A DNA stretch of 64,000 bases from Patescibacteria group bacterium (lineage in GTDB: Bacteria; Patescibacteriota; Patescibacteriia; UBA9934), in contig JAGORL010000002.1 in assembly GCA_018062825.1 (NCBI GenBank), forward strand, positions 1,629 through 65,628. The letters are read 5' to 3'. Position numbers and translations under genes: made by a program. How positions within the stretch are numbered: the first letter of the stretch is position 1; each line of letters begins with the position of its first letter. Shown here piece after piece: positions 1 to 56,790 of the stretch. The notes beneath the pieces are model-generated. The model was not told where the DNA came from and did no database searches. It saw nothing but the letters and a program-made list of their open reading frames with translations.

Positions 1-145
1 TACCATCGCCCACGACAACAAGCGGCGCGTCGTGATACCGAGCGAGCATGATGCCCTTGAACAGACGACCGTACCAAATCTCCTCATTGCCAGCGGCGTT
101 CTTGTAGTGTGGTGCCGCCGGAACCACGATAACCTTGCGTGACAC
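1..145 (-). CDS. partial CDS (N-terminal part only; gene continues beyond window start), unknown function
   Basis: Minus-strand frame reads (GTG)SRKVIVVPAAPHYKNAAGNEEIWYGRLFKGIMLARYHDAPLVVVGDG... and stays open to the window edge. The GTG start at 145 is preceded by AGGAG. Confidence 0.4.
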   Translation of the reverse strand, partial: MSRKVIVVPAAPHYKNAAGNEEIWYGRLFKGIMLARYHDAPLVVVGDG

Positions 146-200
146 GAGAGTCTCCTGAAGTGAAGTGAGGGATCTTGAGGCCCGCATGTCGACATACGAG

Positions 201-308
201 CCAAAACCCCCCACCTCACCTCCGGCCCCAACGTAGTCCGGCTCTGCCGGACGAAGTGGACCTACTCCCTATCCCCTAACCCCTATACCCTATTCCCTAA
301 TCCCTCCC
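201..308 (-). repeat. composite intergenic repeat: conserved hairpin module (227-269) plus C-rich CCCTAA/CCCTAT tract (264-308), G-rich on the sense strand
   Basis: A related copy lies at 38243-38348. The hairpin arm GTCCGGCTCTGCCGGAC differs from GTCCTCAAGGAC in the second copy but keeps its pairing. The 13-mer CCGGCTCTGCCGG recurs at 24594-24606. Confidence 0.6.
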
Positions 309-1074
309 ACATCGCATCAAAGATCATTTCTTGCGTTGACGAAATTGCCTCGTCATCAATCACCGCCCCAAACAACCTGCCATCACTCCCAGCGGAAATG
401 TAGGCCGTCTTCTTGCCGTACATCAGAATGTACGCCGACGAACTTGCACTCGTTGAAAGCCAACGTCGTTCATCAAGGCCATGCTCCGCTCCCCCTGGCC
501 CAATTGCAATCGCCCGTACATGCACCTTGCGTTTTACACGCAAAGCCGTGTAATTCGGCCACGCTTGAGCAATGAGTTCACGAACTTCGGCAGACGAGTA
601 CACGCGATACACGCGCTCAGGCAACAATTCGGCAGTCGAAAGTACATCGTTTAAGATGTCACGAATACCAGCATCGCCTTCGTAGTAGCGCACCGCCGCT
701 CTATGCATCGCAGAGCCGGAAAGTGCTCGCAGCGCCGGAATTGCCGTATCGATCGCTAGTTGCGCCTCTTTAAGCGCCATCTCTTTACGAATGGCGAGTG
801 TACGCAGCTTCTGAGGATCTTCCGCTGTAAAGTACCGATGCGACTTAGCATCAACGTAACTCACCACCCCGGAATCAAGCAGGCGCTTTAAAGCGTCATA
901 CGTCGTACCACGGTTGTAGCCAACCTCCTCAGCGATTCGACGCAGTGGAGCGCTTCCTAGCCGCAACAGGGCAACGTAGATGGCTAAATCCTTCTCAGTT
1001 AAACCAAGAAGGGTTAACGACTGCTTGGAAACTATAGGTGTGGACGACATAGTATGACAAAAATATTCCGACAC
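283..1074 (-). CDS. TrmB-family transcriptional regulator
   Basis: N-terminal winged HTH (LTEKDLAIYVALLRLGSAPLRRIAEEVGYNRGTTYDALKRLLDSGVV) with a C-terminal TrmB-like domain. The last codons GNRV-stop are encoded by the G-rich repeat. Confidence 0.7.
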   Translation of the reverse strand: MSEYFCHTMSSTPIVSKQSLTLLGLTEKDLAIYVALLRLGSAPLRRIAEEVGYNRGTTYDALKRLLDSGVVSYVDAKSHRYFTAEDPQKLRTLAIRKEMALKEAQLAIDTAIPALRALSGSAMHRAAVRYYEGDAGIRDILNDVLSTAELLPERVYRVYSSAEVRELIAQAWPNYTALRVKRKVHVRAIAIGPGGAEHGLDERRWLSTSASSSAYILMYGKKTAYISAGSDGRLFGAVIDDEAISSTQEMIFDAMWEGLGNRV

Positions 1075-1189
1075 TTCAGTGAATATGTCAAAAGTACCCT
1101 TATTTCATTAGCTAAAACGAATAGTTATTTTGTCTGGATTCAGCCGGCATTTTAGTAAGCATCAGCCAAAATCTCTATACCGGCTAAAA

Positions 1190-1218
1190 TTGACGTCCTT
1201 TTTTGAAAAAGCTATCAT
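1190..1218 (+). promoter_or_regulatory. sigma70-like promoter for tRNA-Gln (TTGACG-17nt-TATCAT)
   Basis: Read directly; the -10 element ends 11 nt before the tRNA 5' end. Confidence 0.5.
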
Positions 1219-1229
1219 GTCGGCGCCGA

Positions 1230-1303
1230 TCCGAGATCGTCTAACGGCAGGACAGAGGACTCTGAATCCTCTAATCATGGTTCGAATCCATGTCTCGGAA
1301 CCA
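1230..1303 (+). tRNA. tRNA-Gln (anticodon CUG)
   Basis: Manual cloverleaf: acceptor TCCGAGA/TCTCGGA, anticodon stem GAGGA/TCCTC, loop CTCTGAA, T-arm CATGG-TTCGAAT-CCATG, discriminator A, CCA encoded. Confidence 0.85.
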
Positions 1304-1307
1304 AAAT

Positions 1308-1335
1308 AAGACCACCTTCGGGTGGTCTTATTTTG
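1308..1335 (+). terminator. rho-independent terminator (AAGACCACC-TTCG-GGTGGTCTT + ATTTTG)
   Basis: Perfect 9-bp stem with a tetraloop and a U-tract immediately after the tRNA. Confidence 0.8.
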
Positions 1336-1473
1336 TCCTGAGCATGACATCATTCGTCATGCGAAGGACCCGTCACGACCTGTTCCTACAAGACCGGGAC
1401 AGGGGGTGACCAAGAAAACCCTCCTCCCTTCATTGGGTGGCGGGTTTTCGATTTATTGGATAAAATTTAGAAT

Positions 1474-2202
1474 ATGCTCCCAGTTCCGGAAGAATCTCGT
1501 GAAAAAGTCTATTGCCTTGAGGACCCGAGATGGTTTGCACCTATTAATGTCATTTCGCATTACAGTAGCCATCTCGATTCCTTGCCGCGCGAACAGAAGA
1601 AAACCAAAGCTTTTCGTAAAGCATATGAACTGTTTCTTGGTGCGATTATGCTGTTGGGCATTCAAGAAGTAGAGAATGACGTGTACTGGATACAGCCAGT
1701 TTCAGATGAGGAGCAATCTCCAGATGTTCGCACCGGTCGACAAGTACCAGTGAATAACGGTCACGCCCCAGATTTTGAAAGGCAGGATATCGAGGTTGTT
1801 GCATTCATTCCTAAACCTGGCGAGAATCTATCCGAATTTCTTCAACGTACAAAACTGTCTGGAAACAAATCCTACGACTCGAAAACAACCATCTTGTGTC
1901 ACATCCAGACAGGCTCACCCGTTCCGAAAATCACTATTACAGATGAGTTAAGAAAAACAAAAGCTGTTTGCCCGGTTCTTGTATTGGGTCGCACTCACCC
2001 GACGGACCATCAATATCTCTTACTTCAAGTATCCCCAAATTATAAAATTATTGCTCAATACGATGCTAAGGCATTATTGTTAAAACAGGCTCATCAAGGA
2101 TCACTAAACCTTCGGCGAGGTTCAAAACCAGATAATGAGCATCGTCCGAACGATAAGCACTATCCCTTTGAATCCATGGGTTTCACATGTTCTTTGATTT
2201 AG
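1474..2202 (+). CDS. hypothetical protein (AT-rich island)
   Basis: 242-aa ORF in the tRNA-adjacent AT-rich segment; no recognisable motif. Confidence 0.45.
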   Translation: MLPVPEESREKVYCLEDPRWFAPINVISHYSSHLDSLPREQKKTKAFRKAYELFLGAIMLLGIQEVENDVYWIQPVSDEEQSPDVRTGRQVPVNNGHAPDFERQDIEVVAFIPKPGENLSEFLQRTKLSGNKSYDSKTTILCHIQTGSPVPKITITDELRKTKAVCPVLVLGRTHPTDHQYLLLQVSPNYKIIAQYDAKALLLKQAHQGSLNLRRGSKPDNEHRPNDKHYPFESMGFTCSLI

Positions 2203-2215
2203 AAGATAGTACATT

Positions 2216-2956
2216 ATGAGCAATCAACGCCCCAAGATTTCAGACCCCATCCGTCGAAAAATCCGCCAACGTTGCGGCTTTGGTTGTGTATTGTGTGGCT
2301 ACCCTCTCTACGAGTATGACCATATCGAGGGCTGGGCGAATGTTAAGCGGCATCAGGAAGAAGACATCACTCTTTTATGTGTAACGCATCATACTGAGGT
2401 TACTCATAAACTATTGTCACGAGAGGCGGTGAAGGCAGCAAATAAGGATCCATATAATCATCGTCAGGGAGTGAGTAAGCCCTATTTTTTGAATTATGCT
2501 GGGGGCGATCTAGAGACGGAGATTGGTGGAAATATATTTCAGGCCGCAGTCCCGCTCATAATCGAGGATCAACCGATCATCGGATATCAGTCGGATGGAG
2601 AAAACCTCTTACTCTATGTAAAATTATTTGATAAAGACGGAAATCTTGTATTGGACATAGATGCGAACGAGCTCGTTTACTCAATTGACCGGTGGGATAT
2701 AGAGTTGGTTGCTAATCAGCTAACTATACGTGCAGATAAGGGTAAATTCTTAGTTCGAATGCGATTTATCGTGCCTCATAAACTCTACATTGATAGGGGT
2801 ATTATCCAGTATAAAAATCGGTCAGTGTTTATTCAAGATCAGCAGATGACTGTGGATAATGCTGCCATCTTGAGCGGCAGTCGTATTACAGCACCGGTAG
2901 GAATTGCGATTGGTACCTATACGCGTCCGTTCTCATGCGCTATTAGGATCAATTAA
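2216..2956 (+). CDS. HNH endonuclease-domain protein with unknown C-terminal domain
   Basis: N-terminal CGFGCVLCGYPLYEYDHIEGWANVKRHQEEDITLLCVTHHTEV fits the HNH pattern C-x-x-C ... DH ... N ... H-H. The stop TAA is followed by a G-rich tract. Confidence 0.65.
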   Translation: MSNQRPKISDPIRRKIRQRCGFGCVLCGYPLYEYDHIEGWANVKRHQEEDITLLCVTHHTEVTHKLLSREAVKAANKDPYNHRQGVSKPYFLNYAGGDLETEIGGNIFQAAVPLIIEDQPIIGYQSDGENLLLYVKLFDKDGNLVLDIDANELVYSIDRWDIELVANQLTIRADKGKFLVRMRFIVPHKLYIDRGIIQYKNRSVFIQDQQMTVDNAAILSGSRITAPVGIAIGTYTRPFSCAIRIN

Positions 2957-3103
2957 AGGGGGAACAGGGTTTAGGGGCATATAGAAAGGGGTCCCAAAGC
3001 CTCCCCAAAGGCTCAGTCCGTGACCGGGCCATAGAAAACAAGATAAAAATCAAAAACTGACTTTTCTTTTGTTCTTATAAGTATATGATATGTTGGAATC
3101 TAT

Positions 3104-3277
3104 ATGAAAAAATGTATTAAATGCGGACATGCTGAGATGCACACATCAGAACCAATCAGAATTCAAATCAACAGTGAATCAAATCCTTCAAAATTCTTAG
3201 ATATCAATAGATGCAATACTGAAGACTGTGAATGCATTTTAACGCTACAAGAAAAAAGAGACCTCGAAATTGATTAG
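3104..3277 (+). CDS. small zinc-ribbon protein (57 aa), hypothetical
   Basis: MKKCIKCGHAEMHTSEPIRIQINSESNPSKFLDINRCNTEDCECILTLQEKRDLEID, found by manual translation; it is below the ORF-track length cutoff. Confidence 0.3.
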   Translation: MKKCIKCGHAEMHTSEPIRIQINSESNPSKFLDINRCNTEDCECILTLQEKRDLEID

Positions 3278-3307
3278 GAAAATTTACTAAAATCACAACT
3301 AATATAT

Positions 3308-3709
3308 ATGGGATTCTGGATGAACTTTAGAAAAAAAATGTTATGCGAAACATTTTTTTCATCCTACTGCTCAAGAAAGGCTCACTACCCGATGGAAGAC
3401 GAAAATCAATGGTTGAAAGCAGCTATTGAGGAAATATTAACAGATTTTGTTAATCATGATCTCAAAATGATGCCTGAGTTGCTAAATCAAAATGCAGAAT
3501 CAATTTTAAGTCGGATAAAAAACACAGACCCTTACCGACAGGCAATAATTGAACTCTGGAGTTCCTATAAATTTAGTAAACAAATAAGTAAAAATGACTT
3601 TAGTCAAATGTTTAATAACTTTTACGAAAGCGAAAAAGAAATCGAACCACATTACTCAAAGGCCTATATTAAGTATAAAAATAAATTCCCTAAACTGATT
3701 AACTCTTAA
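3308..3709 (+). CDS. hypothetical protein (AT-rich island)
   Basis: 133-aa ORF. The true start may be the internal Met (MEDENQ...). Confidence 0.4.
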   Translation: MGFWMNFRKKMLCETFFSSYCSRKAHYPMEDENQWLKAAIEEILTDFVNHDLKMMPELLNQNAESILSRIKNTDPYRQAIIELWSSYKFSKQISKNDFSQMFNNFYESEKEIEPHYSKAYIKYKNKFPKLINS

Positions 3710-3763
3710 AGTATTGCATTGATCTCTCAGCAGCATGCAATGTAAAGAGGCAACATGCACAAG

Positions 3764-3779
3764 CCCCCCCCTTTTTTTT
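3764..3779. repeat. adjacent homopolymers C8 then T8 between convergent genes
   Basis: AAGCCCCCCCCTTTTTTTTA read directly. Confidence 0.9.
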
Positions 3780-3780
3780 A

Positions 3781-4329
3781 TCACATCTCCTCCCTCTTAA
3801 TCTTATCAACGAGCGCATCAGGCTCAAGGCGAACCTTGAACGAGTCACTCAACAAAGTGTCATACGTGGTGTGATGTGGTCGGACGGTTTTCTCAAGAGC
3901 AACTCCCTGCCCTTCTAGCTGCAAAGCAAAATCATCAAGTGAACCAGTTAGCGGATAGATCTCGATATGATCAAAACCACTGACCTGGCTGCCATCAGGC
4001 TTTTGATCGGACAATTCTAAGTACCAAATATCACCGAGCTCCGTCGCAATTGGAGTCGTAAATTTAACGATCGCAATACGGCGCGCTGAAATGATCGACT
4101 GATACACAAAATCACTGTGGTAATCAAAGAAAGCTCGCAGCTCTTCATACTCTTCCTGACTCCCACACTTATAACAGATATGGTCGGCGCGAGCGGCTGG
4201 CTGAGTTTTCGCTACCCAGGCATTGAAGAGATCAAGCTCTTTCTGGGCGGCTAAAAAGAATTCGTTGAGATTTTTATACATACAAGGCTCAAAGCACCAT
4301 AGCATGAGGTAAAAACAATGAGTACTCAA
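3781..4329 (-). CDS. hypothetical protein
   Basis: 182-aa ORF. Segments FDHIEIYPLTGSLDD / GQGVAL faintly resemble a VOC/glyoxalase-like fold, with low confidence. The true start is probably an internal Met. Confidence 0.45.
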   Translation of the reverse strand: MSTHCFYLMLWCFEPCMYKNLNEFFLAAQKELDLFNAWVAKTQPAARADHICYKCGSQEEYEELRAFFDYHSDFVYQSIISARRIAIVKFTTPIATELGDIWYLELSDQKPDGSQVSGFDHIEIYPLTGSLDDFALQLEGQGVALEKTVRPHHTTYDTLLSDSFKVRLEPDALVDKIKREEM

Positions 4330-4397
4330 GCAGTGGAAAAGACCTGTCGTTTACTTGGCGTTTAAGTGCTATATTTTGCACTAAAATAAAACATCCT

Positions 4398-5699
4398 GTG
4401 GCTACCGAACAACCCCCAAAAACCCCAACAAAACCAACGATCAAACTCACGAAAGAACTTCGAGAACTCTTAGAGGTCTTAGAAAACACTTCAGAGAACG
4501 TTTTCCTAAGCGGTAAAGCCGGCACCGGAAAATCAACTTTCTTGAGATACTTTCGATCGATCACCAAAAAGAATGTAGTCGTCCTGGCGCCAACTGGCAT
4601 TGCCGCCGTTGGGATTCAAGGGCAAACAATTCACTCCTTTTTTAAATTTGGCATTGATACCACGCTCAATGATGTGGAGCCGGTTGCAAAAAGCGCTATC
4701 TATAAAAAGATTGATCTCCTGGTTATTGATGAAATCTCCATGGTGCGCTCGGATCTTTTTGATTGCATGGAAAAGTTCATGCGCTTAAATGGCAGAGAGA
4801 AGCACCTCCCCTTTGGTGGCGTGCAGCTACTTGTAATTGGAGACTTACATCAACTGCCACCGGTCGTAAAAAGAAATGGTGAAGAGAACATTTTTACCGA
4901 ACTCTACGAAGGGCCGCATTTCTTTGACGCCATGTCATACCGCAGTGCCGAATTTAAAAAGATGGAACTTACCCACGTTTTTCGTCAAAATCAAAAACAC
5001 TTCATCGAGGCGCTTGATGCGATTCGGATCAACAAGTACACCGCCAAGCACCTAAAGCTCATTAACGATCGAGTAGCTAAAAATAACGATCACGAGCTTG
5101 ATTTCACTATCTCAATTGTTACTACCAACAAAACCGCGGATGAGATCAACAAGAAAAAACTAGAAAGTTTGAGTACCAAAAAGAAGGTGTACAAAGGCGC
5201 TATTCAAGGCAAGTTCAAAGAAACACTCCCAACCGATGAAAGCCTTGAACTCAAATGCGGTTCGCAAGTCATGCTCATTAAAAACGACCCAGAGGGCCGC
5301 TTTGTAAATGGCGATATCGGTAAAGTGAAATCACTGACCGATAGTGAAGTAGAGGTTATTTTCGAAAGCGGCAAGTGCGTGAGCGTGAGTTCAGAAACCT
5401 GGAACAATATCAATTTCAAACTTGATTCCGCCAAAAGAAAGATTGAAACCGAAACCGTCGGATCATTCACACAAATTCCGATCAAACTCGCCTGGGCGAT
5501 CACCATTCACAAAGCTCAGGGCAAAACCTTTGATAAAGTACATATTGATATGGGCCGCGGCGCCTTTGATTCAGGGCAGACATACGTTGCTCTGAGTCGA
5601 GCACGAACACTCGAAGGTATAACATTAAAGCAACCAATTTATCCGAGAGATATTTATACAAATTCTAGAGTCGATGCTTTTATGAGCAATGACCGTTAG
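4398..5699 (+). CDS. Pif1/RecD-family ATP-dependent DNA helicase
   Basis: Walker A LSGKAGTGKST, FGGVQLLVIGDLHQLPPV, AITIHKAQGKTFDKV, YVALSRAR. Confidence 0.8.
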   Translation: MATEQPPKTPTKPTIKLTKELRELLEVLENTSENVFLSGKAGTGKSTFLRYFRSITKKNVVVLAPTGIAAVGIQGQTIHSFFKFGIDTTLNDVEPVAKSAIYKKIDLLVIDEISMVRSDLFDCMEKFMRLNGREKHLPFGGVQLLVIGDLHQLPPVVKRNGEENIFTELYEGPHFFDAMSYRSAEFKKMELTHVFRQNQKHFIEALDAIRINKYTAKHLKLINDRVAKNNDHELDFTISIVTTNKTADEINKKKLESLSTKKKVYKGAIQGKFKETLPTDESLELKCGSQVMLIKNDPEGRFVNGDIGKVKSLTDSEVEVIFESGKCVSVSSETWNNINFKLDSAKRKIETETVGSFTQIPIKLAWAITIHKAQGKTFDKVHIDMGRGAFDSGQTYVALSRARTLEGITLKQPIYPRDIYTNSRVDAFMSNDR

Positions 5700-6333
5700 C
5701 ACTATGGAAAAATCATACGGAAATATTGCCGCCGCTCTTATCTTCAACGGCGCCATGGTCGCACTTTTCATGCAAGCACTCTTAAGGCCAGAGGCTAATG
5801 CCGAATGGATCTTTCGAGGAGCATTTCTCATCTTCATCTTTGAGTTCTTAGCGATCTTTGCCCAACTCTGGCCTATTAAGCTCGTAGATGAATGGAAAAA
5901 GTCTGATGCTATTAAGAAAACCGGCGTCGTAGTGCAGGGCGTTATTATCTCCCTCTTTATTCTTGGCTTCACCTTTGGCTTTAGTTACCTTGCAGGCAAC
6001 GTAGCCGCCGGTGGCTACTTTGTGATCTCAATGATCGCTAAGTACGTAAGTCATGCAAAAAACGGCATGGACATGAAAGCGACCTATGCCGGTATTTTAA
6101 TCTTCATGGGAACTCTCATGGCAGTCTCGTTCACCTCCCCGGTGTGGCCAGCCATCTTTCCGTTCCCAGAGTCGGTACTCGCACAAAAAATCGACGGTTC
6201 AAGCGGTATGTTTGTCGATGCCCCGCAAGTGCAACTTGTCTGGGGAGCCCTCTACTTCCTCGGTCTCACGATGTACGAACTTAAGAAACCCATCATCGAC
6301 GCCTGGTTTACGAAGTATCAAGTAAAGAAGTAA
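5689..6333 (+). CDS. hypothetical multi-pass membrane protein
   Basis: Several hydrophobic segments. It overlaps the end of the helicase gene, so the two are probably co-transcribed; the start may be at 5704. Confidence 0.5.
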   Translation: MTVSTMEKSYGNIAAALIFNGAMVALFMQALLRPEANAEWIFRGAFLIFIFEFLAIFAQLWPIKLVDEWKKSDAIKKTGVVVQGVIISLFILGFTFGFSYLAGNVAAGGYFVISMIAKYVSHAKNGMDMKATYAGILIFMGTLMAVSFTSPVWPAIFPFPESVLAQKIDGSSGMFVDAPQVQLVWGALYFLGLTMYELKKPIIDAWFTKYQVKK

Positions 6334-6365
6334 GAAAAAATCCCGCTAGCAGGCGGGATTTTTCT
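6334..6365. terminator. bidirectional rho-independent terminator (AAAAAATCCCGC-TAGCA-GCGGGATTTTT)
   Basis: Sits between convergent genes. Confidence 0.8.
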
Positions 6366-6395
6366 ATAACGCACCAAAATCACGAACTCTTCGCA

Positions 6396-8048
6396 CTACA
6401 CAACATTTCCTCCAAAAGCCCCCAAAAGCGCATCGACCGTATTTTCTACCTGTTCACGCTTTTGAAGTACCACCTCAAGGTGAACCGGGCGCATCACAAT
6501 CGTCTCAATGCCCGCACATACCATAAGAGACGTTTTATTATCCTTGAACTTCTCAGCGTGAATAGCGTACGGAACCTCCAAGATAATACGACCTCCGGAA
6601 ACATCCGCAACCGTTGCTGTCTTCATAAGAAGCGAAACAGCCACGCTCTTCTCAGCAACAACACTAATACAGCGCCCCCACTTATCCTTAACGTCATCAA
6701 GCGTAAGCGCAGGTAGTTCAGCGCCATCAGCCGAACTAACGACAGGCTGCCTTGGCGAGCTCTCTTCTACCAGCTTGGAGCCATTTGGCGCACTTGGCGG
6801 CAAGACGGCTCTATTGGTCGGCTTTGCAAATGACGGCATCGGGGCACGCGCAGGAGCGGCGGGAGCAGCTACAGCGGCTGGCGCAGGCTGCGGCGCACGA
6901 ACAACTGGAGCCACAACAGGTGCCGACGGTGTTGCAATAGGAGCAACTGCTGCAACCGGAACGACTGGATAACAAAACCGTACAAAAGCAATCTCAAGCG
7001 GCGCTTGCGGCAAATTACCAAGCGTGGACCTAAAACGCGCCTCTAAAACAAGATCGAGGAGCGATCCAATCTCAGCCGGTTTCAAAGCCTTACTCGCCTC
7101 AGTTTGCGAGCGTCCAAGTTCAGGATCAGCGGATAAAGACGCTTGATCGCCAAGAGAAATATAAAGGGTGTCACGCACCGCCTCCGCAAGTTCATCCGCT
7201 AAATGCTTACAATTACCACCAGATTCCGTGAACGCCAAAAGCTCATTCATCGCTCCATACGCCTCGCGCTTACTTAAAGCTCGCAAGATACCAGCGATCG
7301 TTCGGGCCGCACTTTGCGGTAACAACAAAGAGGCTGTGCTCATGCCAATATGCTGCTCACCGAGTGCTAACAGCTGACCAAATAAACTCTCCGCATCACG
7401 CAAACAACCCTCAGAGCTCTTCGCAATTGCGGCAGTAACGTCATCATCCACCGTCACCGCTTCAGAAGCAGCAATCTTCTGCAAGCGCTTCATGATCTCA
7501 ACCTCTGGAATACGACGAAAATCAAAACGCTGACAACGAGAAAGGATGGTAGCCGGAATTTTATGCAATTCCGTAGTCGCTAAAATAAAAACGGCATGCT
7601 TTGGCGGCTCCTCGAGTGTTTTCAAAAGGGCATTAAACGACGACGTTGATAGCATGTGTACCTCGTCGATGATGAAGACCTTGAATTTAGCGGTGGTTGG
7701 AGCAAACCGTACGTTCTCGATGATATTTTCACGAACATTATCAACACCGGTCTGCGAAGCGGCATCAACCTCCAAAATATCCATCGCTCGACCCTCCTGA
7801 AAGGCCACACACTGCGCACAAGCGCCACAAGGCTCAAACTCCCCCTGCCCCTTACCCTCACACTGCACTGACTTAGCCAAAAGTCGGGCGATCGTGGTTT
7901 TACCCACACCGCGCGGGCCAGCAAAAAGATAGGCCTGGGCGGTTTTTCCCGAGGCAATTTGATTAGTAACTGTACGAATAACATGCTCTTGTTCGCTAAC
8001 ATCAGCGAAACGTTGAGGTCGGTATTTTCGGTAGAGTGCTTCAGCCAT
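6396..8048 (-). CDS. dnaX: DNA polymerase III subunit gamma/tau
   Basis: YRPQRFADV, GPRGVGKTT, Zn-module CxxC..C, DEVHML, and a Pro/Ala-rich linker. Confidence 0.9.
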   Translation of the reverse strand: MAEALYRKYRPQRFADVSEQEHVIRTVTNQIASGKTAQAYLFAGPRGVGKTTIARLLAKSVQCEGKGQGEFEPCGACAQCVAFQEGRAMDILEVDAASQTGVDNVRENIIENVRFAPTTAKFKVFIIDEVHMLSTSSFNALLKTLEEPPKHAVFILATTELHKIPATILSRCQRFDFRRIPEVEIMKRLQKIAASEAVTVDDDVTAAIAKSSEGCLRDAESLFGQLLALGEQHIGMSTASLLLPQSAARTIAGILRALSKREAYGAMNELLAFTESGGNCKHLADELAEAVRDTLYISLGDQASLSADPELGRSQTEASKALKPAEIGSLLDLVLEARFRSTLGNLPQAPLEIAFVRFCYPVVPVAAVAPIATPSAPVVAPVVRAPQPAPAAVAAPAAPARAPMPSFAKPTNRAVLPPSAPNGSKLVEESSPRQPVVSSADGAELPALTLDDVKDKWGRCISVVAEKSVAVSLLMKTATVADVSGGRIILEVPYAIHAEKFKDNKTSLMVCAGIETIVMRPVHLEVVLQKREQVENTVDALLGAFGGNVV

Positions 8049-8103
8049 ATGGAAGGAGTGTAAAACATACGGCGGAATGGCGGAAGGGTAAAGGTGGGAA
8101 GGT

Positions 8104-8460
8104 TTAATGCTTGAAAATCTTTGAATAGCTAGCGATCATGCGTGATAATTTTCGTGAATCATCGAGGCCTTTAGTAAAAGTATCCTGAGAAAAATAACCC
8201 AAATCAAAACCTGCATAAAATAACGAACGAACTTCACCACACGAACCTTTTGCAATCAGTAAATAATTAGCCATGGTTTTAGTTGAATGCGATTCATGAC
8301 CTTCCGCTATATTGTTCATCACCGACAAAGAAGCACGACGCATTTGAGAACGAAAATCACGATCAATGACACTTTTTGTAGAGGAATAAACAAAAGTAAC
8401 AAGCTGCCTAGCCTCTTGCCAGATACGCAAATCTTCGAATGTCTTATATGCCTTATCCAT
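8104..8460 (-). CDS. four-helix-bundle protein (23S rRNA intervening-sequence protein family; Avd-like)
   Basis: 118 aa; RIWQEARQLVTFVY ... MNNIAEGHE ... GSCGEVRSL is characteristic of the TIGR02436-type family. Confidence 0.8.
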   Translation of the reverse strand: MDKAYKTFEDLRIWQEARQLVTFVYSSTKSVIDRDFRSQMRRASLSVMNNIAEGHESHSTKTMANYLLIAKGSCGEVRSLFYAGFDLGYFSQDTFTKGLDDSRKLSRMIASYSKIFKH

Positions 8461-8470
8461 ATCACTAACG

Positions 8471-8547
8471 ACCCCTTCTTGCCCTCCACCTTCACCCCTC
8501 CTCCCTTCACCCTTCCGCCCTTCCTCCTTTCCACCCTTCCGCCCCCA
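8471..8547 (-). repeat. G-rich (sense-strand) purine repeat tract, GGCGGAAGGG / GGAAAGG units
   Basis: Minus strand reads GGGGGCGGAAGGGTGGAAAGGAGGAAGGGCGGAAGGGTGAAGGGAGGAGGGGTGAAGG. It starts at the TAG stop of the upstream ATPase gene. Confidence 0.6.
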
Positions 8548-11088
8548 CTACCCCATCGGCGGCTTCACCGGTGGAGCCACTGGACGTGCCTTGTTCATAC
8601 CCGAACGCTCCATAATGTCTCGCTCTACGATCGATTTATCCTGACCGTACTGCAAACGAGAGATCTCCTTAAGAGCATCACCAACCCGGCGGTTACCTTT
8701 CTCAATCGGAATCGCCTTCATGGTAAACGGCTTAGCCTGGGCGTTCTCAATGATCATCTTCACGTTCCAGGTGTACATGTCGGTATTCATGAGGTCATAG
8801 CCGCTAAAAGTTGGAGCAAACACCTTCTCGAGTGTTTCAACATCTTCCGGACCAACACGCGCCACAAACATGTTTCCAACGTTACCCAAAACTGCATCAC
8901 GGATCTCACTCTTCCCATCTTTCACAAGCTGACCCATGTACTGGTGCGCCAAAATCATGTTCAAACGATACTTACGCGCCTCAGACAAAATCGTGGCAAT
9001 ACTTGGGGTAATAAAGTTCTGGAACTCGTCGATATACAGGTAAAAGTCATGGCGTTCACTCTCTGGAATATCAGCACGTGAAAAGGCTGCCATCTGCAAC
9101 TTAGCCACAAGAATCAAACCAAGAAGCGAAGCATTCACTTCACCGGTCTTACCCTTAGAAAGATTAACGAGCAAAATCTGCTTCTTATCCATGATTTCAC
9201 GGAAATTGAAAGCACTCTTTTGCTGACCAATAATGTTACGCATCATCTCGTTCTCCACGAAGCGACCAACCTTAGAAACCAAGTAACCCATCATTTCACT
9301 CTTATGGTAGTCGCTCGTTTTAGCCATCTCATCCTCCCAGAACGATCGAACAACCGGATCCTTTACCTTGGAAACCCATTCCTTCTGGAAAGCTTCATCA
9401 GCAATCATGCGTGGAATTTCTACAATCGTTCCTGGATTCTGCACATCAGCCATCAAGGTCAACATGTAGTTACGCATGTTGTGTTCAAACATCGGACCGA
9501 TCATTTCCGGTGGGAACAACATGTAGAAAATGCTAATCATTTCCTGCACCACGAAATCGCGCATCTCATCATTTGGTGATTCAAGCATGTTCAAACCCAT
9601 CGGACGCTCAAGGTCTGACGGATTGAAGTAAACAACGTCATCAATACGATTCTTTGGAATGAGCTCAAGAACGCCGTCAGCCAAATCTCCGTGCGGATCA
9701 ATAATACAAACACCTTTGCCGTTTCGAATATCCTGTACGGCCATGTTCTTAATAAACTCCGATTTACCGGAACCCGTTTTACCAATGATGTACATGTGAC
9801 GTCGGCGGTCACTATCTGTCATGTGAATATCAGTACGCACACCCCGATACTCGTTATAACCAACGAGGAGCCCTTCTTTAGGAATGTTTGTTGGAGCAGG
9901 CTGAGTACGCGCAAGCATCCAGCGAATGTTTGGTGTTTCAGTACTAGCAAGCGGCAAGTGCCACAAACTCGCTAACTCTTCAGTGTTAGCGATCAAACGG
10001 TGGCTGTCATCAAACAAGCGGAAAATAAACTCATCAATAATCTTACGCTTAGTGCGAGGAATGCTCTTTTCAAACGAATTGCCGTATTCGTAAATACTGT
10101 ACTGAGAAAAAGCCTGCAAAACGTTACCAAGATACGCTTGAGCCATGTCTGCGGTCTGCGCGGAAGCAACAATGCGAATATTCACCTCAAGCGCTGCCTT
10201 AGTCATCTTGTTCTCAATGCCCTCAAGCATCTTTGTTTCAGCAGCAGACAACCGGCGCTCTCGGCGTTTTGCAGCCTGCTTCTCAATATCTTCCTTAGAA
10301 GACATCCAGCCAGCTTTGGTAGCCCCCGTTTTCGCCTCCTCAAGTGTCATGCCCGCCTGCATGTTGCGCACGATCTTTGAACCAAATGCTCGCCAATCAC
10401 TTGCGGCCGGACGCACCAAAAACTGCACCGCTACGCCATCGGTCTCAAGCACTTTTGATAGTGCATTAGTAAGCGCGTTAACCGGATCACCCTCAATCTC
10501 TTTAAAGGTTTTAATCGGGAAAGCATTTTCACGCTTAAACTTCACGTGACCAGCCACGGTAACGCCGGTTGGTGAAAAAATATTGTAATCAACGATCTCC
10601 TCAAGGTAGGCATCGCTCCATTGTGCATGAAGTTGCTGTTCAAAAAATTCCTGATGCTTCTTCGGAACCGTAACGTAAAACGTAACCAACTTCTCATGTG
10701 CAACAAGTTCAAAAGCAAAAACATCATTCCTGCCTTTAAGCCAAGCATTAAAACCCTTCTCAGGCTTCAAGCCGCCAATCGCGGCATAGAGCGTTTCTGC
10801 AATAGCGATCTTCTCTTTAATAGTTGCCGGCGTATCATTTTGCCGCGCCTCGTCCTGATTTTTATAACGAGGAATAGTCACACGCAACGTCACCTGGGCA
10901 TTCTCACCACCTTTAGCACGCGCCGAACGCATAGCCCGAGCTCGCCAATAGAAAACAAAACCAACCAAGCATCCGACCACCGCCAAAACCGCAGCTAGGA
11001 AAAGAAAAAGGAGCGCTATTGGATCAAGACCAGCGCCGACCGTTGTTTCAAGATCCGTTCCTCCAAGGATTTGCAACATAATCACCAT
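8548..11088 (-). CDS. membrane-anchored FtsK/HerA/TraD(VirD4)-superfamily P-loop ATPase (DUF87/TraG-D_C-like)
   Basis: N-terminal TM segment; Walker A YIIGKTGSGKSEF; Walker B FYLYIDEFQNF; RKYRLNMILAHQYMGQL ... VLGNVGN motif typical of TrwB/TraD coupling-protein ATPases. Confidence 0.7.
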   Translation of the reverse strand: MVIMLQILGGTDLETTVGAGLDPIALLFLFLAAVLAVVGCLVGFVFYWRARAMRSARAKGGENAQVTLRVTIPRYKNQDEARQNDTPATIKEKIAIAETLYAAIGGLKPEKGFNAWLKGRNDVFAFELVAHEKLVTFYVTVPKKHQEFFEQQLHAQWSDAYLEEIVDYNIFSPTGVTVAGHVKFKRENAFPIKTFKEIEGDPVNALTNALSKVLETDGVAVQFLVRPAASDWRAFGSKIVRNMQAGMTLEEAKTGATKAGWMSSKEDIEKQAAKRRERRLSAAETKMLEGIENKMTKAALEVNIRIVASAQTADMAQAYLGNVLQAFSQYSIYEYGNSFEKSIPRTKRKIIDEFIFRLFDDSHRLIANTEELASLWHLPLASTETPNIRWMLARTQPAPTNIPKEGLLVGYNEYRGVRTDIHMTDSDRRRHMYIIGKTGSGKSEFIKNMAVQDIRNGKGVCIIDPHGDLADGVLELIPKNRIDDVVYFNPSDLERPMGLNMLESPNDEMRDFVVQEMISIFYMLFPPEMIGPMFEHNMRNYMLTLMADVQNPGTIVEIPRMIADEAFQKEWVSKVKDPVVRSFWEDEMAKTSDYHKSEMMGYLVSKVGRFVENEMMRNIIGQQKSAFNFREIMDKKQILLVNLSKGKTGEVNASLLGLILVAKLQMAAFSRADIPESERHDFYLYIDEFQNFITPSIATILSEARKYRLNMILAHQYMGQLVKDGKSEIRDAVLGNVGNMFVARVGPEDVETLEKVFAPTFSGYDLMNTDMYTWNVKMIIENAQAKPFTMKAIPIEKGNRRVGDALKEISRLQYGQDKSIVERDIMERSGMNKARPVAPPVKPPMG

Positions 11089-13140: not shown

Positions 13141-13704
13141 TCACCACGTGATGCCCACAGAAGCACCCTGGTACTCGGTACCCGTATCCACCCGCCAGCG
13201 AGGGATATCATCCCCCTCAGCGAAGGGCGAGAAGTCGATCCCGCGCTCAGTGCCACCCTGGAGTCCGAAAGCCAGATGCATCGGGAACACGACCACGGTC
13301 GTGACCACACGCTGCTGACCCGCAAACATCACCGGGCGACCAATGAGGTGAAACGGTGAGACACCGAGGTCGCTCGCGGCCACAACGAGCACGCGCGAGA
13401 ACTCCGGAAACGCCGCCGCTACGGCATTAACCGAAACTCCCTGAACGCTGTCCCGCTTCAAGTAGCGCGGCACCTCCACATCCGCCCCCACTGAGCAGTG
13501 AGGACCCTTGAGACGCATGCGACGCTCGACAAACGACCGCCTCACAACGCTCAGAACCGACCACTGCGGCACGAGCACCTGGTTCAAGGGAACGAACAAC
13601 CCATCAGCCTCCTTGCCGAGACCGGCGTAGAGAAAACGACGTCCAAACTCCTGGTGCAGGAGCACGTGCCCGAACAAGAAACCTTCTTGACCATCGTCGC
13701 TCAT
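13141..13704 (-). CDS. hypothetical protein, GC-rich cassette a1
   Basis: Start at MSDDGQEGF preceded by CTTGGAGGTG. The strongly GC-rich segment yields spurious antisense ORFs. Confidence 0.5.
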   Translation of the reverse strand: MSDDGQEGFLFGHVLLHQEFGRRFLYAGLGKEADGLFVPLNQVLVPQWSVLSVVRRSFVERRMRLKGPHCSVGADVEVPRYLKRDSVQGVSVNAVAAAFPEFSRVLVVAASDLGVSPFHLIGRPVMFAGQQRVVTTVVVFPMHLAFGLQGGTERGIDFSPFAEGDDIPRWRVDTGTEYQGASVGITW

Positions 13705-13745
13705 CTCACCTCCAAGGCGACAAGGTAGCGTAACAAAAAACACAA
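13705..13745 (-). promoter_or_regulatory. conserved cassette leader, copy a1 (CGCTACCTTG ... CTTGGAGGTG-ATG)
   Basis: Shared with leaders at 14447-14510, 20870-20898 and 45758-45813. Confidence 0.45.
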
Positions 13746-13792
13746 CAAAAAGCAAACAAAAGACTCGCCGCCCCTTCCGCAGCCGCGGAAGG
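13745..13792 (-). terminator. terminator of cassette a2 (CCTTCCGC-GGCT-GCGGAAGG + U-rich)
   Basis: 8-bp stem followed by a long T-rich run on the minus strand. Confidence 0.55.
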
Positions 13793-13810
13793 TAACGACG
13801 AGCCAGCGCC

Positions 13811-14446
13811 TCACCCGGACACGAACCGATCAACGACATCGGGTCCCTCCACGTGCCTCAGGAAGAGCGGATGAACCTGTTCGTTACGGTCGTACTGGGG
13901 CACCACAACGAACTTGCGAGTACCATCACCGTTTGCGCCCCACAGGTACAAACCGGCCTTGCGCTCCCCGTGATCACGTTCCACCTTGCGGTCGAACACG
14001 ATCGCGAAGCACTTGAGCACGTAGCGAACGCTGTGCGGATCACGCTCGAGGCGCACCAGCCGACCAAGTGACGAGAGCGGAAAGCGCGGCTCGCGCAGTA
14101 CGCCACGCAGAAGGTCGCGTCCCGTCGGCGTTGCCGCATCAAGGAAGCGTCGCCAGATATGCACGTAGGCTTCGTCATCACGCGGCAAAGCCACGATCTC
14201 GAAGCTCTGGAAAGGCTGCTCCACGCCGTTGATGGCAAAGTAGCTGCCACCGGCATCGATGAAACACTCCCGATCCGGATAGCCCGGCAAGGCTGCCGCC
14301 CGAAAGCGATCAATGCCATGCTCGGTACCCACCCGGGTGACAAAGGCCGCCACCACAGAACCACTCTCTTCCCCACGACCGTACACGACGATCGCGCTTG
14401 CTGCCGGGGCCTCACGGCCACGAGAGCTAGGCCGACTTTGACCCAT
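13811..14446 (-). CDS. hypothetical protein, GC-rich cassette a2
   Basis: Start at MGQSRPSS with RBS GGAGGGG. The alternative-frame ORF 13858-14421 has an implausible composition. Confidence 0.5.
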   Translation of the reverse strand: MGQSRPSSRGREAPAASAIVVYGRGEESGSVVAAFVTRVGTEHGIDRFRAAALPGYPDRECFIDAGGSYFAINGVEQPFQSFEIVALPRDDEAYVHIWRRFLDAATPTGRDLLRGVLREPRFPLSSLGRLVRLERDPHSVRYVLKCFAIVFDRKVERDHGERKAGLYLWGANGDGTRKFVVVPQYDRNEQVHPLFLRHVEGPDVVDRFVSG

Positions 14447-14510
14447 GACCCCTCCAGTCCTCGGGATGAATTCCCGCGCCAAGGTTAGATGAAAAATGAC
14501 AAAAACGCAA
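14447..14510 (-). promoter_or_regulatory. conserved cassette leader, copy a2 (TTGCGT-17-TAACCT; CTAACCTTGGC; ACTGGAGGGG-ATG)
   Basis: Aligned by eye with three other copies. Confidence 0.45.
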
Positions 14511-18320: not shown

Positions 18321-18872
18321 TTATACTTTCGCAGGAAACTGATAGATAAATTTTAACAACATCTCAACAAAGTGAATGATTTTTTCAGCCTCGTCCCTAG
18401 TGCGACTTTGGATTTCATGATTAGCGTCATTGCCAAGCTGTCTTATTGCATCGACCCAGTCACGACTACCTGGTGGAGTATAGTGATTCTCTACAAGCCA
18501 ATTCACATATTCCGCGAATTTCAGACCTTTATCTGCACCTTGCGACACAGCGACATTCATTAATACTTTGCGCATACACATAACTGAAGCCGTATAAGCA
18601 CTTACAGAAAAAGACTTTCTTCCTTCCGTGTATATTCCAAGAACATCAGTCGGCAAATCGCTTACATCATTGCCATACGCAACTCCTGGATATTGAACCC
18701 CTTCGCCAGAAAAATAAGTCGGATGATTACAAGCGTGACAAATGTATATACTCGCATGTGGGCTAGATGCATGAGAGCCTACAAAATATCCAACATTTGA
18801 TGCCAAAGGATTATGACAATACCCACAGGTATATGATCGAGACTTAATTATATGAGTCTGTATCCAAGCCAT
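18321..18872 (-). CDS. zinc-ribbon + DUF4145-domain protein
   Basis: N-terminal CGYC ... CHAC ribbon. The C-terminus ([18 protein letters not shown] ... [15 protein letters not shown] ... [17 protein letters not shown]) matches the DUF4145 pattern (IR..GN.AAH ... LL..LY). Confidence 0.7.
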
Positions 18873-20251: not shown

Positions 20252-20869
20252 CTACCGCACAACCGAGACCGTGAGAGCGATCTCGTTGTTGCAGGGGCGT
20301 GGCATCCCCAGACCGACGTAGCTACTAGCGTCGAAGGAGATCGCCGCCCCGCCTTCGAAGATGAAGAGTGCTCGTTGCCCAGCCTCGATCTCGCCAGAAG
20401 TCGGTGGGCACTCCAGGCTCCTGGCCTCGTAGTCGAACCACTCCAGAGTCGCGGTTCGACCACGCAATCGGATGCGCGGGCCGTCGATCTGAGTGACGAG
20501 GACACGTTGATCGTCGTGCGCTACGAAGCGCGGGATAACCATGTGCGCCCCTCGGCGCATGATGTAGGTGATGCCGATGCCGTGGAAGTCCTCCGGCTTC
20601 GGCAGGTGAATCACCCGCTGCTTGGGAACCGCGAGCTCGAGCACGAGCTCGTACTGCACACCGGAAGACGTACGCCTTCCTTGCCGCTGTCGGCGACGCT
20701 GAGAACGAACCTCCTTGCCCTGGGCAGACTCTCCGTCGATCACCCGGACACGGAAGCTGATGATCCGGTGGATCATCGCCAGTTGATCATAGGCCCCGCA
20801 CCGTGCGTAAGGCCCCTCCTTGCTGTTGCTCGACCCTGTGGAATCACGGGTCGCTGGCATGCCACACAT
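20252..20869 (-). CDS. hypothetical protein, GC-rich cassette b
   Basis: Start MCGMPATRD preceded by ACTGGAGGG; no recognisable domain. Confidence 0.5.
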   Translation of the reverse strand: MCGMPATRDSTGSSNSKEGPYARCGAYDQLAMIHRIISFRVRVIDGESAQGKEVRSQRRRQRQGRRTSSGVQYELVLELAVPKQRVIHLPKPEDFHGIGITYIMRRGAHMVIPRFVAHDDQRVLVTQIDGPRIRLRGRTATLEWFDYEARSLECPPTSGEIEAGQRALFIFEGGAAISFDASSYVGLGMPRPCNNEIALTVSVVR

Positions 20870-20898
20870 TGGCCCTCCAGTAAGGCCAAGGTTAGCGG
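20870..20898 (-). promoter_or_regulatory. conserved cassette leader, copy b (TTGCGC-17-TAACCT; CGCTAACCTTGGCC; ACTGGAGGG-ATG)
   Basis: Aligned by eye with the other copies. Confidence 0.45.
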
Positions 20899-20931
20899 AA
20901 AAACAAAAAGAGCGCAAGACCGCGCTCTTTC
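20898..20931 (-). terminator. terminator of PP2C gene (AAAGAGCGC-GGTCTT-GCGCTCTTT + UUGUUUUU)
   Basis: Read directly. Confidence 0.75.
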
Positions 20932-24565: not shown

Positions 24566-24871
24566 AAATACGGCCTTATCGTCTAGCGGCTATCCGGCAA
24601 AGCCGGACCCGGCTCTGCCGGGGGACGTCATATGTACATCGTCTATATACTTTCGTCCGAAAGCAATAATCGCTGGTACATTGGAATGACTGCAGACATT
24701 AAGGTTCGTTTAGGTGAACACAATGCAGGTCGCGTGCGCTCCACAAAGCCATATGTTCCGTATCGCATTATTTATACGGAAACATATCCAGACAAAACAA
24801 CTGCGCGGAAAAGAGAGATTCAGATTAAAAAATCTGGATTAATCCGCAAGCAGTTAAAAGACAGGATTACC
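24566..24871 (+). mobile_element. 306-bp GIY-YIG mini-element inserted at the 5' end of tRNA-Glu, bounded by 26-bp direct repeats (24566-24591 and 24872-24897)
   Basis: The repeat AATACGGCCTTATCGTCTAGCGGCTA covers the first 21 nt of the tRNA. Two tandem hairpins (TCCGGCAAAGCCGGA, CCCGGCTCTGCCGGG) precede the ORF. Confidence 0.45.
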
Positions 24872-24898
24872 AATACGGCCTTATCGTCTAGCGGCTAG
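24632..24898 (+). CDS. GIY-YIG nuclease family protein (small, YhbQ/UPF0213-like)
   Basis: MYIVYIL ... WYIGMT ... R ... EHN ... motif set. The stop codon TAG lies inside the D-arm of tRNA-Glu. Confidence 0.8.
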   Translation: MYIVYILSSESNNRWYIGMTADIKVRLGEHNAGRVRSTKPYVPYRIIYTETYPDKTTARKREIQIKKSGLIRKQLKDRITNTALSSSG

Positions 24899-24951
24899 GA
24901 CGGCACCCTCTCACGGTGCAGACCCGGGTTCGATTCCCGGTAAGGTCACCA
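24877..24951 (+). tRNA. tRNA-Glu (anticodon CUC)
   Basis: Acceptor GGCCTTA/TAAGGTC (one G-U), anticodon stem GCACC/GGTGC, loop CTCTCAC, T-arm CCGGG-TTCGATT-CCCGG, CCA encoded. Confidence 0.85.
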
Positions 24952-44582: not shown

Positions 44583-44590
44583 GAGTGGGT

Positions 44591-45757: not shown

Positions 45758-45813
45758 GCCACCTCCAAGTGATTGGCGGCTGAAAGGTTAGCGAAATTTT
45801 AGAACTTTGTCAA
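45758..45813 (-). promoter_or_regulatory. conserved cassette leader, copy c (TTGACA-17-TAACCT; TCGCTAACCTTTC; CACTTGGAGGTGGC-ATG)
   Basis: Aligned by eye with the other copies. Confidence 0.45.
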
Positions 45814-56424: not shown

Positions 56425-56790
56425 ATGACCCTTTTTCTGCTCTTTTTCGCCTGTATCATCCCCCCACAGGAAGATCTCACCACTGCTACGTCACCGGCCG
56501 CCAAGACCAAAGCGGAGCCGACTGCCGAAGTCATCGATCACAAACCCATCGGTAAGATCGCCTGCGCCGAGATGGAGCGCGTCACCTGGAAGGGTGACGT
56601 CTGGCTTACCGGAGGCGATGAACCTACCCTCGCCTACATCGAAGAGGTCGCAGATGGGAAGAAAGTGGCCTGTGCCCTCGCCTGGCCATTTCGCCACCCG
56701 AAGTTCGCGGAGTTCTCCTTCTGCGAGAAGCGAAGCGGGCGTGGCGAATGCATCACCGTGCACCCCGAGCTCGAGACGCTCGACGAATAA
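56425..56790 (+). CDS. putative lipoprotein, hypothetical
   Basis: Signal-like N-terminus ending in FFAC (lipobox-like). Confidence 0.45.
   Translation: MTLFLLFFACIIPPQEDLTTATSPAAKTKAEPTAEVIDHKPIGKIACAEMERVTWKGDVWLTGGDEPTLAYIEEVADGKKVACALAWPFRHPKFAEFSFCEKRSGRGECITVHPELETLDE

Follow-up and report, generated by a model that had tools for sequence, protein, structure and literature searches.

A probable patchwork of unrelated accessory genes between tRNA-Gln and dnaX in a Patescibacteria genome

Genomic islands adjoining tRNA genes, and chromosomal integration hot spots of the same kind, lie at a tRNA 3' end, deviate in G+C content (GC), carry accessory nuclease-type cargo, and occupy sites that are empty or otherwise filled in relatives. 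Here, we report on an interval with these properties, the last of them judged from distant relatives, located between a tRNA-Gln gene and dnaX in a 64,000-nucleotide stretch from a Patescibacteria group bacterium (assembly GCA_018062825.1, contig JAGORL010000002.1, positions 1,629 to 65,628 of the forward strand), referred to below as the window. From the tRNA toward dnaX, the interval encodes a 242-amino acid (aa) protein (p242), an HNH-like protein, two small open reading frames (ORFs), p57 and p133, a YecM-like protein, a Pif1-family helicase, and a polytopic membrane protein. Unlike such islands, it has no integrase, attachment (att) direct repeat, or mobility genes, and it is a mosaic of independently distributed genes, half of which are conserved in near relatives. 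It adds another case to a known kind of feature, the variable accessory region beside a tRNA gene, and its genes do not make up a coherent system. A literature search for island or integrase work in Patescibacteria returned nothing relevant.

The reading that we prefer, with a probability of roughly 60%, is that the tRNA-Gln/dnaX interval is a layered patchwork of unrelated genes, neither a single defense system nor an intact mobile element. It draws on composition, on gene identities and their independent distributions, on the empty or differently filled sites of relatives, and on the conservation of the right-hand block. A first look at this DNA from its letters alone (the original prediction) had described a tRNA-flanked nuclease plus helicase set typical of a defense or mobile island. 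The variable, GC-deviant site with horizontally mobile nuclease-type genes stands; the single set does not, since HNH, p242, and Pif1 were never together in any other locus examined, the matches in the PADLOC defense catalog are generic only, and the right half is conserved.

Composition sets the interval apart, and it is not uniform along the window: the AT-rich stretch of about 5 kb that had been predicted downstream of tRNA-Gln is borne out. There are 5,092 bp from the end of tRNA-Gln to the dnaX stop codon. Positions 1304-6365 have a GC of 42.7%, versus 49.6% in the remaining window, and this is the lowest value of all 5,062-bp sliding windows (mean 49.2%, standard deviation 2.1%; about 3.2 standard deviations below the mean); between 751 and 5750, no 500-bp window exceeds 47.8%. 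The dip is uneven, with 31-33% at 3000-3750 and 42-48% in the other parts of the stretch. At the gene level, p133 is the sole strong outlier among the interval genes, p242, HNH, and Pif1 have moderately reduced values (z about -1.2 to -1.3), and the YecM-like gene (z -0.8) and the membrane protein gene (z -0.4) are within the normal spread of window genes. Six of the seven interval ORFs are on the plus strand, in contrast to the rest of the window, where almost every gene is on the minus strand. The interval begins directly at the tRNA-Gln 3' end (1303), a hallmark of tRNA islands, where a perfect hairpin likely serves as the tRNA terminator, and it ends with a second hairpin between the membrane protein gene and the convergent dnaX, which agrees, A and T tracts included, with the bidirectional terminator noted earlier. 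The ORF coordinates given earlier all match the ORF list, and an Rfam scan of 1-9000 found nothing beyond tRNA-Gln. Just upstream of the window are a RimK-type ATP-grasp gene and a DUF218 gene.

We then compared the site with its counterparts in other genomes. Relatives of dnaX were sought among 185,579 species genomes, and 160 dnaX loci were fetched, in 152 of which the dnaX stop was located. The best relatives are metagenome-assembled genomes (MAGs) of Patescibacteria (Magasanikbacteria-like and others) at 32-44% dnaX identity, which indicates that the lineage is poorly sampled; a metagenome scan for closer dnaX relatives gave a best identity of 42% and no near relative with a long contig. 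A tRNA-Gln gene is found downstream of dnaX in 64 of the 152 loci. In 53 of these, it is on the dnaX strand (median gap about 70 bp), and in the other 11 the two genes face each other, the arrangement also seen in the window, with gaps of either 70, 73, and 204 bp or 1.7-8.7 kb. Three loci (L056, L215, and L013) have an empty site. The best comparator, L056, reads RimK, tRNA-Gln, 73 bp, dnaX, and further on a VirB4-like gene, with RimK 38% and the VirB4-like protein 58% identical to those of our genome; relative to it, our genome has additional sequence to either side of the tRNA, i.e., DUF218 and TrmB genes 5' and the 5,092 bp 3'. Other convergent loci are filled differently. L001 holds a YafQ/RelE-type toxin with a small adjacent ORF (no Pfam match; a possible antitoxin), a DSP phosphatase, and proteins without assigned function; L008 holds ParB-like and zeta/AAA_33-like proteins; the gaps of L185 and L187 hold ordinary genes (C39-like peptidase, glycosyltransferase, ABC-F protein, and MatE); and that of L029 holds a transporter-like ORF and a DUF1801 protein. 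None of the filled convergent loci has an integrase, and tblastn with the island proteins of the window gave no match within 10 kb of dnaX in the 160 fetched loci. Judged from these loci, the tRNA-Gln/dnaX interval is a variable site, and some of the differences between genomes resemble ordinary rearrangement more than mobile-element traffic. The neighborhood of a VirB4-like (DUF8128/DUF87) ATPase, dnaX, and tRNA-Gln recurs in many Patescibacteria MAGs (L001-L080, L182-L261), where tRNA-Gln is usually within about 100 bp of the dnaX stop and on the same strand.

Table 1. Features of the tRNA-Gln/dnaX interval and its flanks (positions in the window)
Feature	Position	Strand	Basis and remarks
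TrmB-like regulator gene	283-1074	-	At window start, before tRNA-Gln
tRNA-Gln (anticodon CTG)	1230-1303	+	ARAGORN; Rfam tRNA 61.8 bits; 3' end toward the interval
Perfect 15-bp hairpin, arms CAAAATAAGACCACC/GGTGGTCTTATTTTG	1302-1335	.	Inverted repeat, 100% complementary
p242, rare family	1474-2202	+	8 homologues; GC 43.3%
HNH-like nuclease (predicted), phrog_6544 family	2216-2956	+	phrog_6544 E=1.3e-40 over whole protein; GC 43.9%
p57, 57-aa ORF, CxxC ... Cx4CxC	3104-3277	+	ORF list; uncalled in the GenBank record; in the 31-33% GC trough
p133, near-orphan	3308-3709	+	31.6% GC, z=-3.6; most AT-rich gene of the window
YecM/VOC-fold protein	3781-4329 (3781-4281 with the annotated start)	-	PF06185 E=7e-11
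Pif1-family SF1B helicase, core only, 433 aa	4398-5699	+	PF05970 E=2.7e-31, 109 bits vs cutoff 25.9
Polytopic membrane protein	5689-6333	+	Start overlaps Pif1 stop by 11 nt; at least 4 hydrophobic segments
Intrinsic-terminator-like bidirectional hairpin	6335-6364	.	12-pair stem and T run; A tract upstream, T tract downstream
dnaX, conserved right flank of the variable site	6396-8048	-	VirB4-like/dnaX/tRNA-Gln neighborhood kept in relatives

Near relatives retain the half of the interval next to dnaX. In two Logan contigs (L094 and L095; dnaX 88% identical, about 80% DNA identity), Pif1, the membrane protein gene, and dnaX have the layout of the window, the L094 Pif1 being 94% identical over its C-terminal 66 residues; the island is absent from the site in all distant relatives. 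In a third contig (L096, again about 80% DNA identity), the YecM-like protein is 83%, Pif1 92.6%, and the membrane protein 60% identical. Pif1 is at least as conserved as dnaX, which argues for purifying selection and inheritance within the lineage. The YecM-Pif1-membrane block is lineage-conserved and not recent cargo, and for this half the synteny in relatives that had been named as counting against the original prediction was found.

Identification of Pif1 itself is straightforward. Beyond the Pfam match, it aligns with solved bacterial Pif1 structures (8bns, E=6e-127; 5fhd, E=5e-81; range to 3e-44) and its Walker A/B motifs and motifs III-VI are intact, in full agreement with the earlier call of a Pif1-family helicase; close relatives were found in neither the metagenome nor the viral scans. 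For its role, we commit by analogy to a housekeeping-like genome maintenance function, as discussed for bacterial Pif1 in PMC3113762. The membrane protein has three homologues only and no Pfam, NCBIfam, PADLOC, or PHROG match; its predicted coupling to the helicase is seen in the 11-nt overlap, and its membrane nature in the hydrophobic segments. It adjoins Pif1 in L094, L095, and L096, whereas its homologue in L097 adjoins an OPT transporter gene with no Pif1 nearby, so the pairing is not obligatory. Of the two further proteins that the original prediction left unassigned, p133 is indeed a near-orphan, but the other is YecM/VOC-like (PF06185, 42.6 bits versus a cutoff of 25, residues 43-124, with weak NCBIfam VOC matches). 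Please note that L096 carries an additional Exo_endo_phos (EEP) nuclease gene (602-1330, plus strand; PF03372 E=4e-14) between YecM and Pif1, forming an EEP-Pif1-membrane operon that is missing in the window.

In contrast to this block, the two nuclease-type genes next to the tRNA are patchily distributed. The HNH-like protein matches the Pfam HNH model only weakly (E=0.017, 15.7 bits versus a gathering score of 21.4), and the same model matches 3 of 30 phrog_6544 members tested; five HNH families of PHROG, however, align with its residues 9-75 (best E=1.9e-7). When 30 homologues were aligned, H46, C55, and H58 proved to be shared by all of them and C24, C27, and H36 by nearly all; the family pattern C-x3-C-x2-C ... 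(D/E)H ... H ... T-L-L-C-x2-H-H varies little or not at all, and the position of the canonical HNH Asn is occupied by an invariant Thr52. The protein consists of an N-terminal Cys/His beta-beta-alpha-metal finger (about 14-65) and an all-beta C-terminal domain (about 100-246). By this signature, it belongs to the HNH (beta-beta-alpha-metal) superfamily, and nuclease activity is predicted. The HNH domain proposed earlier is thus supported by the PHROG families and the conserved Cys/His residues, though it stays below the Pfam gathering score. The C-terminal domain, which had been called novel, was modeled confidently by AlphaFold2 (AF2) over residues 100-246 (predicted local distance difference test, pLDDT, mostly 84-95 by block) and has no significant fold match in PDB or BFVD, and a PDB sequence search with the HNH profile likewise found nothing; it is, however, conserved throughout a large family and in that sense not peculiar to this protein.

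That family counts 586 homologues at E <=1e-3 across phyla. For most of them, full-length identity is about 41-48%; they occur in Proteobacteria, Actinobacteria, and Bacteroidota, with hosts such as Citrobacter, Vibrio cholerae, Acinetobacter, Pseudoalteromonas, Colwellia, Pseudonocardia, and Arcicella, and in many metagenomes. The gene is solitary and has a different neighborhood in every context read. On Patescibacteria-type contigs, relatives sit 75 bp after tRNA-Pro, between recO and aspS, and after dcd; the Acinetobacter homologue is flanked by transporter genes, and that of Citrobacter has a CI repressor and an integrase at a distance of 3.2 kb. Further homologues are found on plasmids, in the early accessory region of a Klebsiella prophage, on at least 91 IMG/VR viral contigs, and in bacterial chromosomes distant from phage genes. 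There is no conserved partner: with three genes considered on each side, no neighbor cluster occurs in more than 16 of 79 viral loci. The HNH gene is AT-richer than its surroundings in all 80 viral loci (by 7.7 points on average) and in all five cellular loci checked (e.g., 42.9% versus 60.3%). A solitary HNH ORF at varying intergenic positions and without a conserved partner is one hallmark of a free-standing homing endonuclease. Most likely, the protein is a free-standing DNA endonuclease, with the Cys/His finger being catalytic and the beta-rich domain serving recognition, an activity that we infer. Because the gene is solitary, site-hopping, and prophage-rich, it may be either a homing-type selfish gene or a single-gene exclusion nuclease. 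A general association of the family with tRNA genes was considered and rejected, as a tRNA is within 1 kb in only 1 of 80 viral loci and there is none in L099. Separately, about 230 bp downstream of the HNH homologue in L101 (about 8800-8892), we noticed a tRNA-like T-arm plus acceptor end (GGGCGGGTTCGAATCCGCTAGCTCCGCCA), called by neither ARAGORN nor Rfam, which may be a tRNA fragment.

For p242, earlier described as an unknown protein, the domain searches are in agreement: it has no Pfam, NCBIfam, PADLOC, or PHROG match, and a PDB sequence search with its profile found nothing. The best of five AF2 models (pLDDT 73.5) has an alpha-beta-beta-beta-alpha-beta core. Across the family E52, P83-D84, D105-x-E107, and K127 are invariant, with E52 on helix 1, P83-D84 before strand 2, and D105-x-E107 on strand 3. 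The top Foldseek matches are PD-(D/E)xK domains (SPARDA nuclease, MspJI, AspBHI, and Mus81), none of them significant (E of 0.04 or worse, template modeling score <0.3). On this model, the odds that p242 is a PD-(D/E)xK-fold nuclease are about even. Genomic contexts are readable for three of the eight homologues, all on Patescibacteria-type contigs and never beside an HNH gene, and in all three the gene is AT-rich relative to its host locus. As in the window, the gene is on the 3' side of a tRNA in all three loci, twice within about 1.1 kb of tRNA-Glu and once 5.2 kb from tRNA-Leu behind a small HTH_36/DUF5659 gene cluster; no viral matches were found. In one of the loci (L093), a DUF4238 protein gene (7016-7993, plus strand; E=2.5e-46) lies between tRNA-Glu and the p242 homologue, with 7 bp between the genes.

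These distributions bear on whether anything was acquired at all. If the whole interval had been inherited vertically, its low GC would come from gene-specific constraints and from relaxed selection on lineage-specific genes; the right half is in fact kept in near relatives, the YecM-like and membrane protein genes have normal GC, several filled tRNA-Gln/dnaX gaps elsewhere hold ordinary genes, and absence in relatives is weak evidence because the closest genome-level dnaX is only 44% identical. For HNH, however, such a history is excluded by its full-length identity to proteins of three other phyla and its presence in phages and on plasmids, and both HNH and p242 are AT-rich against every host locus examined and differ in position in every Patescibacteria-type contig examined. 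We therefore regard purely vertical descent of the interval as very unlikely.

The remaining two ORFs are close to orphans. The original prediction had pointed to an unannotated zinc-ribbon ORF, p57; the ORF is present and uncalled, but it has no homologue and no Pfam, NCBIfam, PADLOC, or PHROG match, and it may not code for protein, although an ORF of 57 codons in DNA of 32% GC is somewhat unlikely by chance. For p133, which also lacks a match in these four collections, an exhaustive phmmer search of 1.84 billion representatives returned nothing apart from the query, one protein of 39% identity, and two spurious short matches.

We looked for traces of an integrative element in several ways. 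No tyrosine or serine integrase or other recombinase was found in any ORF of 1-12 kb, and no phage structural or replication gene either (Pfam, NCBIfam, and the gene calls of the record). By exact k-mer search on both strands of the whole window, the tRNA-Gln sequence and its 3' flank have no repeat of 12 nt or more; the direct repeat of the tRNA 3' end suggested near 6.3 kb was searched for and not found, and a lone 11-nt match at 32551 is to the post-tRNA hairpin and distant from the island. A general repeat search of 1100-8600 likewise gave no repeat involving tRNA-Gln, and alignment of the regions flanking the p242 and HNH homologues revealed no conserved non-coding sequence in common that could mark cassette ends. 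The earlier statement that integrase and att duplication are absent is confirmed by these scans, and we see no sign of an intact mobile element at 1304-6365. An inverted repeat bracketing the p57-p133 trough (2947-2962 and 3767-3782; 13 of 16 nt) was taken as chance.

A decayed element is another matter, i.e., a prophage, satellite, or island that would have entered the tRNA-Gln 3' end via a tyrosine integrase, later shed the integrase, the att repeat, and most other genes, and left its accessory 'moron' genes as all of the interval or its left part. Position at the tRNA 3' end and low GC fit such a history, HNH is typical prophage accessory cargo (phrog_6544; 91 viral contigs; the Citrobacter and Klebsiella prophage contexts), and the p242 relatives are at tRNA 3' flanks in 3 of 3 loci, one beside the HTH_36/DUF5659 small-gene cluster. 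Still, with neither integrase, recombinase, nor phage genes in 1-12 kb, no tRNA repeat, no shared non-coding ends, no viral matches for p242, and distributions of p242 and HNH so different that at least two separate events would be needed, we think it unlikely.

The helicase and the nuclease-type genes together could also be thought of as one anti-phage system, with p242 and HNH as nucleases, Pif1 as helicase, and the membrane protein as effector, on the plus strand against the prevailing gene orientation. The two nuclease-type genes are only 13 bp apart, the helicase is translationally coupled to the membrane protein, the DNA is AT-rich and borders a tRNA gene, L096 has an EEP nuclease gene immediately before Pif1, and Pif1 matches helicase models of the PADLOC candidates PDC-S68 and PDC-M16A. 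In PADLOC-DB v2, however, these matches, as well as one to type IV RecD, are to the generic superfamily 1 (SF1) helicase core only and are partial, the model proteins being 700-1270 aa long; p242, p57, p133, the YecM-like protein, and the membrane protein gave nothing, HNH only E=0.021, and 30 HNH family members nothing meaningful. The suggested look-up of the helicase in defense catalogs thus ended without a recognized defense system. In addition, HNH, p242, and Pif1 do not co-occur elsewhere, the set is split by the convergent YecM gene and two orphan ORFs, conservation is uneven (Pif1 at 93% versus patchy left genes), and a membrane protein homologue does without Pif1 beside the OPT transporter gene. 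A single defense system is, to us, highly improbable.

Returning to the layered patchwork, the following scheme would account for our data. The ancestral site would have been a permissive intergenic gap of about 70-200 bp, bounded by terminators, between the 3' ends of tRNA-Gln and dnaX. A first layer, beside the tRNA, would consist of two independently mobile, intrinsically AT-rich single-gene cassettes: p242, possibly a PD-(D/E)xK-type nuclease from a rare family on Patescibacteria-type contigs, and HNH, whose N-terminal finger would cut while the conserved beta-rich C-terminal domain recognizes the substrate, for use as a selfish homing-type gene or a single-gene phage-exclusion nuclease. 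The near-orphan AT-rich ORFs p57 and p133 would form a second layer, and the lineage-conserved YecM-like/Pif1/membrane block beside dnaX a third, in which Pif1 would be a functional 5'-3' superfamily 1B (SF1B) helicase under purifying selection that clears DNA secondary structures as well as barriers to replication. Inferred in this scheme are the two nuclease functions, the order in which the layers arrived, and how the genes were inserted; candidate routes of insertion are recombination after DNA uptake, nuclease-driven homing, and decay of an older integrative element, the first two being considered because there is no integrase or att repeat.

Several observations weigh against this scheme. 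Pif1 and p242 are similar in GC (43%), so composition alone does not separate the layers. The relatives with empty or differently filled sites are distant (dnaX 32-44%), and at this distance rearrangement and insertion are inseparable. Recent gain of p242, HNH, p57, and p133 is deduced from patchy distribution and composition, the near-relative contigs covering the right half. The fold of p242 rests on one confident AF2 model of five and Foldseek E values of 0.04 or more. Finally, the Pif1 block of L096 has a TSP3-repeat gene after it in place of dnaX and includes the extra EEP nuclease gene, which shows some mobility or rearrangement of the block.

A more far-reaching idea is that free-standing nuclease genes in Patescibacteria use tRNA flanks as landing pads and spread without integrases. 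A nuclease of this kind would recognize a conserved tRNA gene or terminator region in a naive chromosome, and its gene would be copied in alongside by repair. Hints in this direction are the p242 family at tRNA 3' flanks in 4 of 4 loci, the HNH relative 75 bp after tRNA-Pro, and a GIY-YIG gene of the window that adjoins tRNA-Glu; we find the idea quite doubtful. If it were true, p242 would be a new, lineage-restricted PD-(D/E)xK-type homing nuclease and the phrog_6544 HNH a widespread uncharacterized homing or exclusion nuclease with a new recognition domain. The GIY-YIG gene, an 88-aa ORF (24632-24898, plus strand; PF01541 E=1e-14), overlaps with its 3' end the 5' end of tRNA-Glu(CTC) (24877-24951, plus strand), a second small nuclease gene abutting a tRNA in this genome.

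Some further features of the window are worth recording. Between dnaX and the VirB4-like ATPase gene lies a gene of the 23S rRNA intervening-sequence protein (IVP) family (8104-8460, minus strand; PF05635 E=2.6e-27), which is AT-rich (37.6% GC, z=-2.4) and surrounded by a 37-nt purine-rich/pyrimidine-rich inverted repeat (8071-8107 and 8491-8527, 78% complementary); IVP homologues also adjoin dnaX in L040 and L220. A 183-aa ORF with a DUF4145 domain (E=1.2e-11; 18321-18872, minus strand; 40.6% GC, z=-1.8) stands amid genes of normal GC and is possibly another acquired accessory gene. At the other extreme, ORFs of high GC (60-65%, z +1.9 to +2.9) are found at 13141-14482 (-), 20252-20917 (-), 44585-45772 (+), and 56425-56790 (+).

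What we report is mostly corrective, i.e., a defense-like nuclease plus helicase 'island' is better read as a layered patchwork whose helicase half is lineage-conserved. Two points nevertheless reach beyond this locus. The phrog_6544 proteins form a large, cross-phylum HNH family, always solitary and always AT-rich, and their presence in enterobacterial prophages makes them easily testable for phage exclusion or homing. The VirB4-like/dnaX/tRNA-Gln neighborhood in its convergent form, in turn, appears to be a recurrent gene-gain site in Patescibacteria and may offer a handle on how reduced genomes acquire DNA without recognizable integrases.

It remains to compare the individual genes with known systems. 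The PD-(D/E)xK nucleases nearest to p242 are the BamHI-like D...ExE variant and the catalytic domains of SPARDA DREN, MspJI, and AspBHI: the predicted core of p242 has acidic residues where these would be expected, but unlike them it has no sequence-family match or significant fold match and no partner methyltransferase, Argonaute, or sensor domain. The free-standing HNH homing genes of phages (e.g., T4 mobE-type; PMC2790892, PMC2988022) are likewise solitary ORFs between unrelated conserved genes, and the resemblance of phrog_6544 extends to a site that differs per genome, AT-richness relative to the host, frequency in phages and prophages, and an HNH-type Cys/His finger joined to a separate putative recognition domain. 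It departs from them in being known here from sequence, in having Thr instead of the canonical Asn, in a beta C-terminal domain that matches no known DNA-binding fold, and in members that also reside in chromosomes far from phage genes. As for the helicase, the window Pif1 is a core-only SF1B enzyme with the full set of motifs, as are the described bacterial Pif1 proteins (Bacteroides BaPif1, 5fhd/5ftb; the thermophile enzyme, 8bns/8bnv, PMC9964779; for an overview, see the review cited above); unlike them, it shows translational coupling with a small polytopic membrane protein, and one of its relatives has an EEP nuclease gene in front.

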